Below, one piece after another: positions 7,193 to 13,355 of a DNA stretch of 64,000 bases. Made by a program: the position numbers and the translations under genes. Every line of letters starts with the position of its first letter. Position 1 is the stretch's first letter. The notes under the pieces are model-generated. The model worked only from the letters and a program-made list of their open reading frames with translations. It was not told where the DNA came from and ran no database searches. The stretch lies in the sequence record OQ845958.1; one strand, written 5' to 3'. Source of the stretch: Escherichia phage pEC-M719-6WT.2.

Positions 7193-7939
7193 TTATGAAG
7201 TCACTGTTTGTTCGGCTACTAACAATGCAGAGGTTATTGTAAAGTTGCCGCCATTTGGCATAACAGTTATCGCTGTACCATTGGTTGCCATTGCCCCATC
7301 TTTATCAATGCTAAAGAACGTTGTAAAAGACAAAATATCTGTAGCATTTTCCGGACGATTTTGTATATAAGTGTTTCCGTTGGTTCCAACGAAATTTAAT
7401 GTTATACTTCGAGCTTGCGAGCTTCCTGTAAAATTACCAATAAGGTTGAGTTTAAATAATAGGCTTCTGTCTTGGTTATATGGCCACAACTTATCATCAG
7501 TGGTTCTAAAAAACGGAGATAGAGTCCCTGCTGTCGGCGGAATCCCCTTTAAAACACTAATTATGTTTGACGTCACACCATTAGTTAATAGAACGTTTAT
7601 ACCACTCCAAAACACCTCGGATTTTTCCCTCTTTCCTGCTGTATCAGTTAAAAAATCATCAACAGTTCCTGTATTTCCCAAGTCAAGCCATATCTGATAA
7701 GAAGACTTTCCATCCCCGCCTGGGTCTCCTTTTGGTCCTGGTACACCCGGTTCTCCTTTGGGACCAGGCGGACCCGGTATCTGAGTTTCCGAGCTGGACA
7801 TAGTTTGGAAAAAACGCTCTTTGCTATCTGTAGGAGTATTCGGCAACACCATAGTAGAACCAAACAAATACCAATTATTAGCCAAGGCAGCCTGGACTTT
7901 TTCATTGAGTTCATCAACAGTTCTTCCGGATAAAATCAT
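7193..7939 (-). CDS. collagen-like repeat protein with tail-fibre-like motif
   Basis: 248 aa on minus strand; strong SD (AAGGAGA) 7 nt before ATG; eight Gly-X-Y triplets (GPPGPKGEPGVPGPKGDPGGDG) followed by KSSYQIWLDLGNTGT, resembling the SAYEIW..GF.GT motif of phage fibre proteins. Confidence 0.6.
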   Translation of the reverse strand: MILSGRTVDELNEKVQAALANNWYLFGSTMVLPNTPTDSKERFFQTMSSSETQIPGPPGPKGEPGVPGPKGDPGGDGKSSYQIWLDLGNTGTVDDFLTDTAGKREKSEVFWSGINVLLTNGVTSNIISVLKGIPPTAGTLSPFFRTTDDKLWPYNQDRSLLFKLNLIGNFTGSSQARSITLNFVGTNGNTYIQNRPENATDILSFTTFFSIDKDGAMATNGTAITVMPNGGNFTITSALLVAEQTVTS

Positions 7940-7985: not shown

Positions 7986-8015
7986 GTGTACAACCAGATG
8001 GTCATGATGCATAAT
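7986..8015 (+). promoter_or_regulatory. early promoter (GTGTACA, 17 nt, CATAAT)
   Basis: followed by conserved leader GATTCCATACTGAGTTACCAAAT...GGAGAATAAAATG. Confidence 0.5.
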
Positions 8016-8574: not shown

Positions 8575-8604
8575 GTGTACATGGTATGGGGATAGACGTA
8601 TAAT
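8575..8604 (+). promoter_or_regulatory. early promoter (GTGTACA, 17 nt, TATAAT)
   Basis: same cassette and leader as at 7986; precedes ATG 8641. Confidence 0.5.
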
Positions 8605-8640: not shown

Positions 8641-9165
8641 ATGGAAGCTAAATCAATCTTTAATCTGATTAATTACAATAATGGTAATTTTAAATCAGAA
8701 GCACAAAGCAAGTTCTTTAATGATGTTGCTTGTGCGGGTGAGATTACAGTATCAGGTGGTCAGACTTATAAAAATGCCTGGAACTGGATTGTGACTGTTG
8801 ATTCAGTTGGTATTGTTGATGTGTATAAAAACACCAACAAAAACCGCTCTTTGTTCTGGTCAAGAGAGACTAATGCAGAATATCAGGCGGCAAGAGCGAA
8901 GAAAAATATGCCTACTGAATCTGATGTACAAAACATCAAATCAGATATCCAATATTATGATGGTCTGATTGCTGAACAACAAGCGGTGCTTGATAAGTTC
9001 AATGAAATCAAAGCATGTAAAGAGATTCCTGAATTCATGAGGGAATCAGTTAATGAACAATACAATCTCACTTCAGAGCGTATTGAAACCTATACCAAAC
9101 AAAGAGCAGAGCGCCAGGTACTCCTTCAGAAGTTTGAAGAGCGTTTAAAGACGGTTCTCGCATAA
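8641..9165 (+). CDS. hypothetical protein with C-terminal coiled coil
   Basis: 174 aa; heptad-rich C-terminus. Confidence 0.5.
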   Translation: MEAKSIFNLINYNNGNFKSEAQSKFFNDVACAGEITVSGGQTYKNAWNWIVTVDSVGIVDVYKNTNKNRSLFWSRETNAEYQAARAKKNMPTESDVQNIKSDIQYYDGLIAEQQAVLDKFNEIKACKEIPEFMRESVNEQYNLTSERIETYTKQRAERQVLLQKFEERLKTVLA

Positions 9166-9191
9166 ACGCTTTATACCAAGGATGGTATAAT
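9164..9191 (+). promoter_or_regulatory. possible MotA-dependent middle promoter
   Basis: AAACGCTTTA (close to MotA box TGCTTtA), 12 nt, then extended -10 TGgTATAAT. Confidence 0.35.
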
Positions 9192-9228
9192 GGTTCTGAC
9201 CTTTGATTAATCTATTGAGGAAATTATT

Positions 9229-10074
9229 ATGTCACAAGCAATTAATGAAATTCGTTCTGAAGTTAAAAAAGTTGTTAAATTTGGTCGTATACCAAGCACC
9301 AAAGATGTGGTTTTAAATGTTCTATATATGATGTGGAATAAGTTCAATGTTTGTACTAATTCCGCTGAATTCACTAAAATCTTTGAAAAGACCACTGGTC
9401 TTCTTACATTAGAAGACCGAGTCATGAAATCTCTTCATCGTTCAGGTATGTTGTCTCGTGCTAATGCCAAAATTTTACTTAAAAATTATAATAAAGGTTA
9501 TGACCTTTATGGTCGTGCGATTAACACCATGACGTTTGATGAAGTGGTTAAAGACCTTTGGAAAAACCAGCGCCGTTTATTGGCATTAGGCGCTCGTTTA
9601 GCAAGCGGTCAAGATAAACAAATGACCTTTAAAACCAATAATTCTTTAGATTATAAACTATTTAATGTTATTAAAGGTCAAAAAGAAGGTGAATACAGTA
9701 TTTCTTCTTTTAGTGGATGTCAATATGATAATTGGAAATTCCATCTTCGTTTGGCATTGTCTGTACTGGAATGTCACGGTATTCTTACCTTTTATGATGT
9801 TAAAACTGGAGGCGTCCAGCGTATTAAATTATGCCAAATTAAAGACCAATTTGAAGTCAGCCCTTCAGAACAAGCTCCTAAAATGGAACCTGTTCCAGTG
9901 CGAAGCAATGAAAAATATTCAGAGCAAATTGAGCTTTTCACTAAACAGATTGAAGAGCTTAACATCACCATCCAGCAGCAAGATGATGAAATTTTCCGTC
10001 TGTCAGGACTGAATAACGCGGCGAAAGCCGAACGTCAGAAACTGATGAACGTTATTGAATTGCTTAAGGATTAA
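9229..10074 (+). CDS. hypothetical protein with C-terminal coiled coil
   Basis: 281 aa; heptad-rich C-terminal 70 aa. Confidence 0.5.
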   Translation: MSQAINEIRSEVKKVVKFGRIPSTKDVVLNVLYMMWNKFNVCTNSAEFTKIFEKTTGLLTLEDRVMKSLHRSGMLSRANAKILLKNYNKGYDLYGRAINTMTFDEVVKDLWKNQRRLLALGARLASGQDKQMTFKTNNSLDYKLFNVIKGQKEGEYSISSFSGCQYDNWKFHLRLALSVLECHGILTFYDVKTGGVQRIKLCQIKDQFEVSPSEQAPKMEPVPVRSNEKYSEQIELFTKQIEELNITIQQQDDEIFRLSGLNNAAKAERQKLMNVIELLKD

Positions 10075-10075
10075 T

Positions 10076-10291
10076 ATGACTATTTTGATTATCAGCATTA
10101 TTTTTGGTTATCTTGTGATAGGTTTTATTACTACCCTGTTGCTCCACAAGTTTGATAGTCCCTACGAAAGTGGGGACGAGTATGATGCGGTGTTCACAAC
10201 ATTTTGCTGGCCTATATTCTGGGTAGTCGCTGTTATAATGTGTGTGGCCTGGCCTTTTGCTAAACTCTATAAAAAATTATTTGGATTATGA
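10076..10291 (+). CDS. small membrane protein
   Basis: 71 aa; two hydrophobic helices; ATG 1 nt after upstream stop. Confidence 0.4.
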   Translation: MTILIISIIFGYLVIGFITTLLLHKFDSPYESGDEYDAVFTTFCWPIFWVVAVIMCVAWPFAKLYKKLFGL

Positions 10292-10292
10292 T

Positions 10293-11174
10293 ATGAACAT
10301 TAAAACACGTAAAGAATATTCTCGATTTGAACAGCGTGAAGGTCGTGCAACCCGTCTTATCGCGATGAATTCTCTGGTTAACTTTGGTAAAATCAAATCA
10401 GGTTCTGCCACCCAGGGGTATGGACAACGTATTGTAAGAATTAACTCTCTGAATGATTACTGCCGCCGCCCTGCGTTTTTGTTTGGTGCCACAGTTCGTA
10501 AGAGCATTAAGGAAATCCTGGCTGCAGGGCTTCGTATTCGCAAGGCTCCGGTTAACATCAAGAACTATAATTTTAACTCCAGTAACTTGATTATCAATAT
10601 CAAGAATGATGGTATACAGATTAAGTTCAAACCAACCACCAAGGGCGACGTTGCTCTTTGTGATACCTTTAAAGAGGTTATGGGTATCGCACTGTTTTAT
10701 ATGCGCCATGCTGTTGAAGCATACACGTTTGAAGAAGATACAAATTATATCCACCAAACGGAAAAATTCCTTAAAACTATAGTCATTGATATTAAATTAA
10801 CTAAAGAATATCTTTTGTCTTATGCACCTTATCAAGAGAAAAAGGAACCAGAAATGGCAGAACATATCCCTACTGCGACATATAACCCAGCAGTTACAGG
10901 TCAGTTTAAATCTTACGACCAGGCTAAAATTTCACCACTGGAAGTTAAAAATATGTATCAATGGAAAATCCAGCCAAACAGCTCTCTTGAAATCTTTAAC
11001 CCACCAATGAAGCCTATTGAGAGCTATCATGCTGATGCTATCCAGGAATCAGTCAACCGCTTAAACGGTCTGATTGAAGATGAGAAAAAGGGTATCCAGG
11101 ATGTTCTGAATCGCATCAAGAACATGGAAAAACAACGCAATAAATTGCAGGCGGCGATTTTAGCATTAAAATAA
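10293..11174 (+). CDS. hypothetical protein with C-terminal coiled coil
   Basis: 293 aa from ATG 10293 (track ORF 10242 begins at non-ATG codon). Confidence 0.45.
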   Translation: MNIKTRKEYSRFEQREGRATRLIAMNSLVNFGKIKSGSATQGYGQRIVRINSLNDYCRRPAFLFGATVRKSIKEILAAGLRIRKAPVNIKNYNFNSSNLIINIKNDGIQIKFKPTTKGDVALCDTFKEVMGIALFYMRHAVEAYTFEEDTNYIHQTEKFLKTIVIDIKLTKEYLLSYAPYQEKKEPEMAEHIPTATYNPAVTGQFKSYDQAKISPLEVKNMYQWKIQPNSSLEIFNPPMKPIESYHADAIQESVNRLNGLIEDEKKGIQDVLNRIKNMEKQRNKLQAAILALK

Positions 11175-11175
11175 T

Positions 11176-11205
11176 GTTTACTTCCAAGGATGGAGGGGGT
11201 ATAAT
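11176..11205 (+). promoter_or_regulatory. sigma70-like promoter (GTTTAC, 18 nt, TATAAT)
   Basis: upstream of ATG 11233 with SD GAGGAG. Confidence 0.4.
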
Positions 11206-11232
11206 GAATTCCTACTTTATGAGGAGAACACT

Positions 11233-12222
11233 ATGACACGTAATGAATATATCCAGGCCTTTAACACCACTATCGATGCAAAAGTAAAACCATTAATAGG
11301 TGAATCGGCTATCCTTTTAATTATCAATTACTGGTTAAATCAGATTGACTCGACGATTGTTGCATCCGGTCGCTTCAAGAAAGACATTGCGACTATTGCG
11401 AGTCGTGCCGGTAAAGATGATATCAAGAAAACTTTTAAAGGTTCCCGAGTCCTGGCATACCTAGTTAATAAAGACCTTCTTAATAAGTTTGGTGTTGAAT
11501 CCAGACGTGGTAAAGGTACAATTGGATATCATTGGTTTGGTGATGTTGAAAAATACTACCTTGATAAACAAGGCTATACTGTTTCTGAATTCGCAAATTG
11601 TTGGGCTCGTGAATTCAGAGATAACAAAATGTCTATCATAAAATCAGCGACAAAATTGATGGGCAGCGATTATCGCACTATCTCCCATTTGGCTGAGCAC
11701 ATGATAAATGTTAAAGAGTCTGGTGAAAACCAGGTAATTATTACAGTTAAGTATGAATTCTTTACGCCGGTGGCTACTCCAGAAAATGTCAAAAAGTATC
11801 TTGATGCCGCGAGCACGCTTACTTCACAGCTGCAGTGTGCCCTTAATTATATGCGCACTGTTGAAAAAATTAAAGTAGACCCTATCACCAGTACTCATGG
11901 TTGGAAAGGTTGGAAAATTGTGGTGACATTACGCGAAGTTAAATGTGCAAAGCAACCAACTGTTGCAGAAATTTATAAAAAGAAAAGTGAGGAAATTATG
12001 AATGCTCCGCAAGAAACCACCCTTGAAGACCTGATTGATAATCTGAATAATGAGCCAGTGGAACAAAAAGCGCCTGAAATTGTTGCTCTGGAAATGGCGT
12101 ATAATAAAGCTCTTGCTGTTAATAAAAAGGCAACTGAAGACTATACCAAAGCCAAGCGACTTTGGGAAGAATCAACTAATCGTCTGGATAAACTGGAACA
12201 GGCTCTGGAGCTGCTGAAATGA
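11233..12222 (+). CDS. hypothetical protein with C-terminal coiled coil
   Basis: 329 aa. Confidence 0.5.
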   Translation: MTRNEYIQAFNTTIDAKVKPLIGESAILLIINYWLNQIDSTIVASGRFKKDIATIASRAGKDDIKKTFKGSRVLAYLVNKDLLNKFGVESRRGKGTIGYHWFGDVEKYYLDKQGYTVSEFANCWAREFRDNKMSIIKSATKLMGSDYRTISHLAEHMINVKESGENQVIITVKYEFFTPVATPENVKKYLDAASTLTSQLQCALNYMRTVEKIKVDPITSTHGWKGWKIVVTLREVKCAKQPTVAEIYKKKSEEIMNAPQETTLEDLIDNLNNEPVEQKAPEIVALEMAYNKALAVNKKATEDYTKAKRLWEESTNRLDKLEQALELLK

Positions 12223-12557: not shown

Positions 12558-12861
12558 TTTAAACCCATTTAAAAGTCAAAATATCATTGAGACTGATGAG
12601 ATGAAAGGCTTGTTTAAAGAACTTCAGGAATTAACGACCCGAATATGTCTCCAATACGTTGAAGATTGCGGTACAACAGTTAGTATAGATTCCATCCATC
12701 GTAATATTCAATCTTCAATTGATTATGCCATTACTGTTTTTAAAATCCGGGCTAATTCGGCTTTAATAAACCAACCAAATACAAATTTACCGTTAGAAGA
12801 GTGTATTGCAATAGCGGCCTATACAGCTTATAATGAGATTGTAGATAATGACAAAGCGTAA
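12550..12861 (+). CDS. hypothetical protein
   Basis: 103 aa from ATG 12550 (track ORF starts at TTG 12535). Confidence 0.4.
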
Positions 12862-13090
12862 AGAATATCTTGAGACTGCTGATAAGGCGGTCCGTGAATT
12901 AACTCTGGCCTATTATAAAGAACACGGTAAACTTCCGGATAGTTATTCAGTATTGAAATCTGCTTTAACTCGTTCATATAATAATATGCGTTCAGAAGTT
13001 TATGGTATTATGGTCAAACATAAAGAACAAACCGGTCAATACCCCGATTATACTGAGACCTTCAAACAAGTATTAGGAATTAAGGAATAA
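12848..13090 (+). CDS. hypothetical protein
   Basis: 80 aa. Confidence 0.4.
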
Positions 13091-13091
13091 T

Positions 13092-13355
13092 ATGTTTAAA
13101 GTATATGGTTATGATTCATCTATTCATCGCTGTGTATTCTGCGATAATGCAAAACGTTTTTTGGATGTTAAAAAACAACCTTACGAGTTCATCAACGTTA
13201 TGCCAGAAAAAGGTGTGTTTGATGATGAGAAGATTGCCCAACTCCTGGCTGCACTTGGTCGCGAATCTCAAATTGGTTTGACCATGCCGCAAGTATTTGC
13301 TCCTGACGGAAGTCATATTGGCGGATTCACTGAACTGCGAGAATATTTTAAATGA
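13092..13355 (+). CDS. nrdC: glutaredoxin (NrdC-type thioredoxin)
   Basis: 87 aa (same as T4 NrdC); CVFC active site near N-terminus; glutaredoxin fold. Confidence 0.85.
   Translation: MFKVYGYDSSIHRCVFCDNAKRFLDVKKQPYEFINVMPEKGVFDDEKIAQLLAALGRESQIGLTMPQVFAPDGSHIGGFTELREYFK

Follow-up and report, generated by a model that had tools for sequence, protein, structure and literature searches.

What are the four genes at positions 8641 to 12222 of Escherichia phage pEC-M719-6WT.2, and why should several of their proteins end in a similar heptad-rich helix? The stretch analysed, sequence record OQ845958.1, is 64,000 nucleotides long and is referred to here as the window. The original prediction, made from the letters of the sequence, described the locus as an array of early genes in which different N-terminal domains are joined to a shared coiled-coil tail. 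All four open reading frames (ORFs) are present on the plus strand. Their products are designated C8, C6, C5 and C4 in the order of their starts (8641, 9229, 10293 and 11233), and C3 stands for NrdC.3.

8641..9165, plus strand: nrdC.8 orthologue, 174 residues, phrog_2274; a weak heptad region near the C-terminus spans about residues 143-174
9229..10074, plus strand: nrdC.6 orthologue, 281 residues, phrog_2257 (PF26899 on homologues), with the tail coded at about 9910-10071
10293..11174, plus strand: nrdC.5 orthologue, 293 residues, Pfam DUF7235, with the tail coded at about 11025-11171
11233..12222, plus strand: nrdC.4 orthologue, 329 residues, phrog_1435; the protein ends in a heptad helix of about residues 282-329, coded at about 12076-12219

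The answer favoured here, to which we assign a probability of roughly 0.6, is that the array is an island of anti-defence genes, coding for paralogues that diverge fast and oligomerise through their tails.

Between positions 8000 and 13000, the window shares 91-99% nucleotide identity with the VR7/SP18 group of T4-like phages (genus Gaprivervirus), and in VR7 the four genes are annotated as nrdC.8, nrdC.6, nrdC.5 and nrdC.4. The same block is found in T4, where it runs from nrdC.1 to nrdC.11 on the early strand. Pairwise BLASTP gives identities to the T4 proteins of 67% for NrdC.8, 49% for NrdC.6, 50% for NrdC.4 and 27.5% for NrdC.5 (E value 1e-27). C5 matches DUF7235 (PF23882) from position 9 to position 307 of 307 (E 1e-115, 386.8 bits with a cut-off of 30), as T4 NrdC.5 does with E 5e-126 and 420.6 bits, and C8 matches phrog_2274 over positions 1-175 (E 5.7e-99). 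The region had been thought not to be conserved in T4; given the T4 orthologues and the full-length DUF7235 matches, that view is wrong. Judged by sequence and gene order, the segment corresponds to nrdC.8-nrdC.6-nrdC.5-nrdC.4 in the T-even accessory-gene block upstream of nrdC, with the nrdC.5 orthologue flanked by those of nrdC.6 and nrdC.4. Compared with the T4 array, nrdC.3 and nrdC.7 are missing from the window, and a small predicted membrane ORF separates the genes for C6 and C5. Each of the four families is found by tblastn in 553-745 phage records, all from T-even-type genera on enterobacteria (Tequatro-, Gapriver-, Dhaka- and Mosigvirus). For C5, a start at the ATG at 10293 and not at the GTG at 10242 is supported by the N-terminus MNIKTR, which is invariant in 32 homologues.

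Are the N-terminal domains, or heads, really different? Family alignments from 14 phage loci were compared with hhalign; their diversity was taken from GenBank phage records, a scan of IMG/VR with the NrdC.4 alignment having returned 8 loci only. T4 NrdC.10 (AAA/STAND-like matches) and NrdC.11 (a nucleotidyltransferase) were used as unrelated negative controls. NrdC.3 and NrdC.4 align over 227 head columns with 97.5% probability and E 7e-12, and C4 and C5 are colinear over 236 columns (E 0.0066). Direct comparisons of C6 with C3, C4 and C5 are not significant (E 0.03-0.07). When the C6 profile was searched exhaustively against 1.84 billion representatives, it yielded only 16 clusters, of which three (P0161, P0163 and P0165) are remote full-length relatives and serve as metagenomic intermediates. 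Phage relatives of these bridge proteins adjoin nrdC.2 in T4-like phages of Edwardsiella, Enterobacter, Klebsiella and Kosakonia. The alignment of the three remote relatives gave the following hhalign results:

Bridge against C6: E 1.5e-16
Bridge against C5: E 3e-12, 226 columns, head and tail
Bridge against C4: E 3.8e-4, 234 columns, a weaker link
Bridge against C3: E 6e-3
Bridge against C8: E 0.32
Bridge against NrdC.10 (control): E 0.18
Bridge against NrdC.11 (control): E 0.055

When the C5, bridge and C6 alignments are merged and compared with merged C3 and C4, the probability reaches 96.8% (E 2e-10; controls 0.05-0.8), and C5 plus bridge against C3 plus C4 gives E 1.7e-9 over 238 columns that extend to the C-terminus. 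The joint alignment has several motifs in common: an N-terminal M-(x)-K-T-R-x-x-Y, an S-x-x-h-S-x-x-x-A-x-x-x-L-x-x-F segment, a helix with ...A-R-L-x-x-G-x-x-R-x-M, and the tail. C8 shows no relation to any of the families or to the merged profile (E 0.05-0.5). A word-indexed protein search with a concatenated two-row alignment of the four proteins returned 8000 candidates, none of them significant.

Structure models point the same way. AlphaFold2 models of C5 and C6 were built with the family alignments. The C5 model consists of a moderately confident head (residues 1-176), a disordered stretch (177-241) and a single helix (242-292), and the predicted local distance difference test score (pLDDT) is below 50 in the segment 177-248. 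In the C6 model (mean pLDDT 79), a head of residues 1-205, mostly with pLDDT above 90, is followed by a disordered linker (206-227) and a single helix (231-280). Both heads finish in a strand-strand-helix-strand-strand unit. In BFVD, the full-length matches of both models include the same uncharacterised proteins of about 310 residues from Pectobacterium phage PM2 and Yersinia phage fHe-Yen9-01. A protein of the C6 family is a further match of the C5 model, and the C6 model matches proteins of about 300-335 residues from T4-like phages of Enterobacter, Acinetobacter, Citrobacter and Klebsiella. A fold search of the PDB with the C6 model found no known fold; the matches that it returned (designed proteins, H-NOX, histidine-kinase) had E of at least 0.026 and a template modelling (TM) score of about 0.2, and no fold was assigned from them.

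Taken together, the profile links across head and tail, the structural matches and the promoter duplication described below indicate that NrdC.3, NrdC.4, NrdC.5 and NrdC.6 are tandem diverged paralogues that form one superfamily over head and tail. By the same profile comparisons, NrdC.8 is a separate, unrelated family of small proteins in the same island. What appears to be new here is the unification of NrdC.3, NrdC.4, NrdC.5 (DUF7235) and NrdC.6 (PF26899), which are kept separate in Pfam and PHROGs. The heads of C4, C5 and C6, taken at first to be different, are thus very divergent yet homologous according to the bridge and merged profiles. The common plan of NrdC.3 to NrdC.6 is a globular head (a helical part and then the strand-strand-helix-strand-strand unit), a disordered, proline-containing linker and an amphipathic C-terminal helix of about 50 residues with a conserved end motif. 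The heads diverge faster, with 28-50% identity, against 44-69% for the tails. Gene content varies by genus, and Mosigvirus has only the genes for C8, a C6-like and a C3-like protein.

Coiled-coil propensity was assessed with a re-implemented COILS-style score, based on the MTK matrix and ranked over the 113 putative genes of the window; only ranks and shuffles were used, not absolute values. C5 (1.70, residues 246-293), C4 (1.67, residues 282-329) and C6 (1.64, residues 224-268) take the first three ranks, each scoring in its last 45-50 residues, and C8 ranks ninth (1.39). With 1000 shuffles per tail, heptad order exceeds what composition alone would give in C5 (p=0.003) and C4 (p=0.014), with p=0.13 for C6 and 0.095 for C8. 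In C6 the a positions (I I I I N R I) and the d positions (F L Q L A L L) form a stripe that is unbroken over seven heptads. The helix of C8 is shorter and weaker, and a proline (KEIPEF) parts it from a helix-like stretch upstream. Coiled-coil prediction thus bears out the expected C-terminal helix for C5, C4 and C6 and gives it weak support in C8. The score ranges and the AlphaFold2 helices put the length of the tail at about 48-51 residues in these three proteins, and not at the 50-70 residues first proposed for all four.

The tail behaves as a module that the paralogues have in common. T4 NrdC.3 and the NrdC.4, NrdC.5 and NrdC.6 proteins end in ...[KR]-x-x-L-x-x-A-[IL]-x-[LVA]-L-K, with one residue extra in C6, and their predicted heptad register is identical up to the C-terminus. 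When tail profiles anchored at their ends were compared over 21 offsets, the common end was the best position in five of the six pairs, and the sixth pair was one whole heptad off. A QR/ER-x-KL motif and a terminal LK are common to the paralogues; in the C6 tail, DDEIFR does not vary and the L next to it hardly does. In every pair of window and T4 orthologues the tail is more conserved than the head (77 against 66%, 69 against 47%, 44 against 28% for NrdC.5, and 56 against 50%), and phrog_26858 matches just the last 60 residues of C5, that is, the tail (E 1e-6). Alignment of the C-termini supports one tail, with one heptad phase and one end motif, in C4, C5 and C6 as well as in T4 NrdC.3. The notion that C8 has this tail was rejected, its C-terminus being out of phase and unrelated by hhalign. 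Of the proposed shared tail on different heads, the tail therefore stands for C4, C5 and C6, but C8 is without it and the heads are homologous.

A natural case of a tail on a foreign head is found in Salmonella phage Manna, whose gene 094 (PP987310 6203-7240) encodes an in-frame chimera of an NrdC.6 head (residues 1-262) and an NrdC.4 tail. Its head is 93% identical to T4 NrdC.6 (1-258) and its tail 96% identical to NrdC.4 (last 83 residues). The deletion has removed nrdC.5 and the head of nrdC.4, and the junction lies at a DDEI/(S/D)EEI microhomology. Another rearranged member is the NrdC.6 protein of Shigella phage Sf25 (378 residues), in which about 80 residues are duplicated internally (alignment columns 198-280), from the last part of the head through the linker into the beginning of the tail.

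The reference sequence of T4 itself shows an irregularity in this family. Its nrdC.6 (NC_000866) encodes 275 residues and lacks the coiled-coil tail through a frameshift, and the "intergenic" DNA ahead of nrdC.5 (NC_000866 13997-14100, minus strand) reads ...LSGLSSKAKSEREKLIKIVDLLKS* in the other frame. In close relatives NrdC.6 has 295 residues (compare L007 5028-5915), and the T4 table of the HIDEN-SEQ preprint lists an nrdC.6 of 891 nucleotides. The frameshift is probably an error of the reference sequence or a strain-specific mutation.

What might these proteins do? Searches of Pfam and PADLOC, and of the PDB by sequence, revealed no domain of known function. Two sets of weak matches were dismissed, one to Cmr5 in PADLOC (E 0.004, 15 bits) and the other, below threshold, to UvsY, Glyoxalase_6, DUF3027 and ThiS in Pfam. 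The label "thioredoxin", attached to all nrdC.x genes in many T-even GenBank genomes, is carried over from the prefix of the gene names, and no thioredoxin-family match was found for these nrdC.x proteins.

The functional anchors come from relatives. A T4 deletion mutant fails to plate on cells with dsr1 from E. coli ECOR17, and plating is restored by expressed T4 nrdC.5; the defence that it counters, Dsr1, is a SIR2-domain protein (Srikant et al., eLife 2022, PMC9391042). In the HIDEN-SEQ preprint (10.1101/2025.11.20.689424), the inhibitors reported include bas37_0203, against Druantia type III, and T4 nrdC.1, against Septu, no characterised homologue being given for either; its tables also list all of the nrdC.1-.11 genes as non-essential on E. 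coli K-12. Located from the gene table of the preprint and the GenBank record of Bas37 (phage KarlGJung, MZ501089), bas37_0203 is a gene of 528 nucleotides between the nrdC.9 and nrdC.7 orthologues, and its product is 98% identical to T4 NrdC.8. C8 is 69% identical to it over the full length (E 7e-92; 174 and 175 residues) and occupies the same place after nrdC.9. The reported Druantia III inhibitor is thus the NrdC.8 orthologue, a link that is made here on identity and position, since the preprint does not use the name nrdC.8. Unlike NrdC.3 to NrdC.6, Bas37_0203 falls outside their superfamily. The nrdC.1 orthologue of the window is 80% identical to the T4 protein reported to act against Septu; counter-defence activity has therefore been reported for no fewer than three of the families encoded upstream of nrdC.

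By analogy with these relatives from T4 and Bas37, the window copies would have similar anti-defence activities, and we infer that NrdC.4 and NrdC.6 are anti-defence proteins as well. C5 resembles T4 NrdC.5 in its full-length DUF7235 match, its place between the nrdC.6 and nrdC.4 orthologues, its plan of head, linker and tail, and its ending in ...QR-x-KL-x-x-A-[IL]-x-A-L-[KN]. It differs in being 47 residues shorter and 27.5% identical (28% in the head and 44% in the tail), and its target specificity may differ from that of the T4 protein. C4 (50% identical) and C6 (49%) resemble T4 NrdC.4 and NrdC.6, which like NrdC.3 are listed as hypothetical (PF26899; phrog_1435 and phrog_2257), and gene order is conserved. 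A possible analogue, likened to the NrdC.5-type proteins by function alone, is DSAD1, as both would serve a phage to neutralise a SIR2 NADase defence. DSAD1 is the inhibitor of DSR2 in SPbeta-type phages and binds the SIR2 defence protein directly. No coiled-coil tail is known in DSAD1.

Dispensability, rapid divergence of the heads, variable gene content and three defence-specific phenotypes fit accessory counter-defence genes. It could be argued that these proteins are factors of host takeover or phage physiology (transcription, replication, nucleotide metabolism), of which the anti-defence phenotypes of NrdC.5 and NrdC.8 are special cases. They are encoded in an early region among the nucleotide-metabolism genes nrdC, nrdD and nrdG, and stray database labels read "replication protein" or "inhibitor of host transcription". 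However, such labels are automatic and inconsistent (the whole set is called "thioredoxin"), K-12 can be infected without the genes, no enzyme or DNA-binding family match was found in Pfam, PADLOC or the PDB, and the phenotypes of three genes of the block are specific to defence. A physiological role is for these reasons considered quite improbable.

If the array is an anti-defence island, the tail offers a possible mechanism. Each head would bind a different host immune protein, and the coiled coil of the tail would make a dimeric or trimeric, multivalent inhibitor. Such an oligomer might raise avidity or cross-link oligomeric defence proteins. The tail of NrdC.4, NrdC.5 and NrdC.6 presumably oligomerises, and a conserved polar core residue (the R of the QR/ER-x-KL motif) together with the fixed end point suggests a specific, in-register bundle.

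The original prediction had the family dock to a common partner through the tail. On this model, different heads would be brought to a single host or phage partner, and the tail would not serve self-association. The tail is more conserved than the head even at solvent-facing positions (DDEIFR of C6, QR/ER-x-KL and the terminal LK), and the chimera of Manna retains a tail on a foreign head. On the other hand, a specific homo-oligomer would also be expected to conserve its ends and a buried polar residue, Mosigvirus has only two members of the family, and Manna has lost one and a half. We regard docking as unlikely. It can also be imagined that the paralogues NrdC.3 to NrdC.6 join through their tails in mixed assemblies with several heads, or bind a partner that they have in common, as the tails agree in length, heptad phase and end motif. 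A complex of this kind would serve as a modular anti-defence hub, with recombination in tail or linker swapping the heads (compare the Manna chimera) to turn it against new immune systems; this is a speculative and rather doubtful proposal. Self-association seems the more economical reading of a coiled coil than docking, although a homo-oligomer, a mixed assembly and a common partner would all agree with the present data.

The reading of the array as an anti-defence island of oligomerising paralogues has its weak points. The activities are known from relatives in T4 and Bas37, and C5 is as little as 27.5% identical to the T4 protein with the phenotype; for NrdC.4, NrdC.6 and NrdC.3 no phenotype is reported in the literature. 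The C5 model is of low confidence (mean pLDDT 58), and the floppy linker keeps the TM-scores from Foldseek low (0.2-0.5). With a shuffle p of 0.13, the coiled coil of C6 is supported mainly by its a/d pattern and the predicted helix. In a stricter tail-to-tail test, in which columns were shuffled within heptad positions only, significance was reached by C3 and C5 (p=0.014), all other pairs giving 0.08-0.25. Tail similarity alone is therefore not far above what is expected of coiled coils in phase, and tail homology rests on the intermediates, the phase and the end motif.

These shuffles, mostly non-significant, and the direct hhalign comparisons of C6 with C3, C4 and C5 (E 0.03-0.07) are what would be expected if the tails were alike merely as coiled coils, with unrelated heads and no family. 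Such convergence is already disfavoured and seems very improbable: intermediates link heads and tails with E values of 3e-12 to 2e-10 (controls 0.05-0.8), the heads have motifs in common, and five of the six tail pairs agree in phase and end point among 21 shifts.

Three promoter-like sites were found in the short spacers of the array:

8576..8604, plus strand: promoter-like site of the nrdC.8 orthologue, TGTACA-17-TATAAT
9167..9191, plus strand: promoter-like site of the nrdC.6 orthologue, CGCTTTA, a 12-nucleotide spacer with CCAAGGATGG, TATAAT
11176..11205, plus strand: promoter-like site of the nrdC.4 orthologue, GTTTAC-17-TATAAT, with CCAAGGATGG in the spacer

As a sequence match only, the T4 early-type sigma-70 pattern (GTTTAC, 17 nucleotides, TATAAT) is exact before the gene for C4 and has one mismatch before that for C8; sites like the one before the gene for C4 number two in the window, where 0.08 are expected. 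At the position of the site before nrdC.8, T4, Dhakavirus and Mosigvirus show GTTTACA-17-TACTAT/TATTAT. Gapriver- and Dhakavirus have one and the same sequence at the site before nrdC.6, Mosigvirus has a near-identical one, and the site before nrdC.4 is kept in VR7, Dhakavirus and T4. The geometry CGCTTTA-12-TATAAT resembles that of a T4 middle promoter with a MotA box. The T4 GenBank records hold no promoter features with which these sites could be compared. The exact 10-mer CCAAGGATGG has two copies in the 64 kb, both in promoter spacers (of the genes for C6 and C4), where about 0.06 matches are estimated to be expected, and it recurs ahead of nrdC.3 in T4 and Mosigvirus. The promoters of the C6 and C4 genes thus look duplicated, as in a cassette duplication. 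For nrdC.5, no promoter of its own was found in any lineage examined: in the window, the gene starts 1 nucleotide past the stop of the membrane ORF at 10076-10291, and in T-even relatives it starts 8 nucleotides after an intact nrdC.6. The idea that each gene has its own promoter thus applies, with conserved promoter-like sites, to the genes for C8, C6 and C4 but not to that for C5.

Some neighbouring features complete the picture of the locus:

10076..10291, plus strand: small predicted membrane ORF of 71 residues, between the nrdC.6 and nrdC.5 orthologues
12848..13090, plus strand: nrdC.1 orthologue, 80 residues, an island neighbour outside the coiled-coil family
13092-13355: nrdC (glutaredoxin), downstream of the array

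The small membrane ORF has no Pfam match. It is kept in VR7 and other Gaprivervirus loci, and the corresponding place in Dhakavirus, between the genes for C6 and C5, is likewise taken by a small ORF; T4 has the 133-residue NrdC.7 (NC_000866 14902-15303) between those for C8 and C6. Both the 71-residue protein and NrdC.7 are predicted membrane proteins, with no detectable similarity to each other. Further upstream, a minus-strand ORF of 248 residues (window 7193-7939) is oriented opposite to every neighbour. It combines a collagen-like G-x-y run (GPPGPKGEPGVPGPKGDPGGDG) with an Sf6-type tail-needle-knob domain (PF16532, E 4.7e-32), which is odd for the early accessory block of a T4-like phage; VR7 has small same-strand ORFs annotated there.

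The array itself is not new, as it consists of T4 genes long known as "hypothetical". The superfamily has a single characterised member, the anti-Dsr1 protein NrdC.5, which therefore provides a lead for the three uncharacterised ones and for other relatives in the Tevenvirinae, and the conserved tail provides a handle on mechanism. With Bas37_0203 identified as NrdC.8, there is a concrete hypothesis for the function of the first gene of the array. If the anti-Septu gene nrdC.1 is counted in, anti-defence genes seem to be densely packed in the island upstream of nrdC, which makes it useful to screen systematically and to draw on when the host range of therapeutic T-even phages is engineered.

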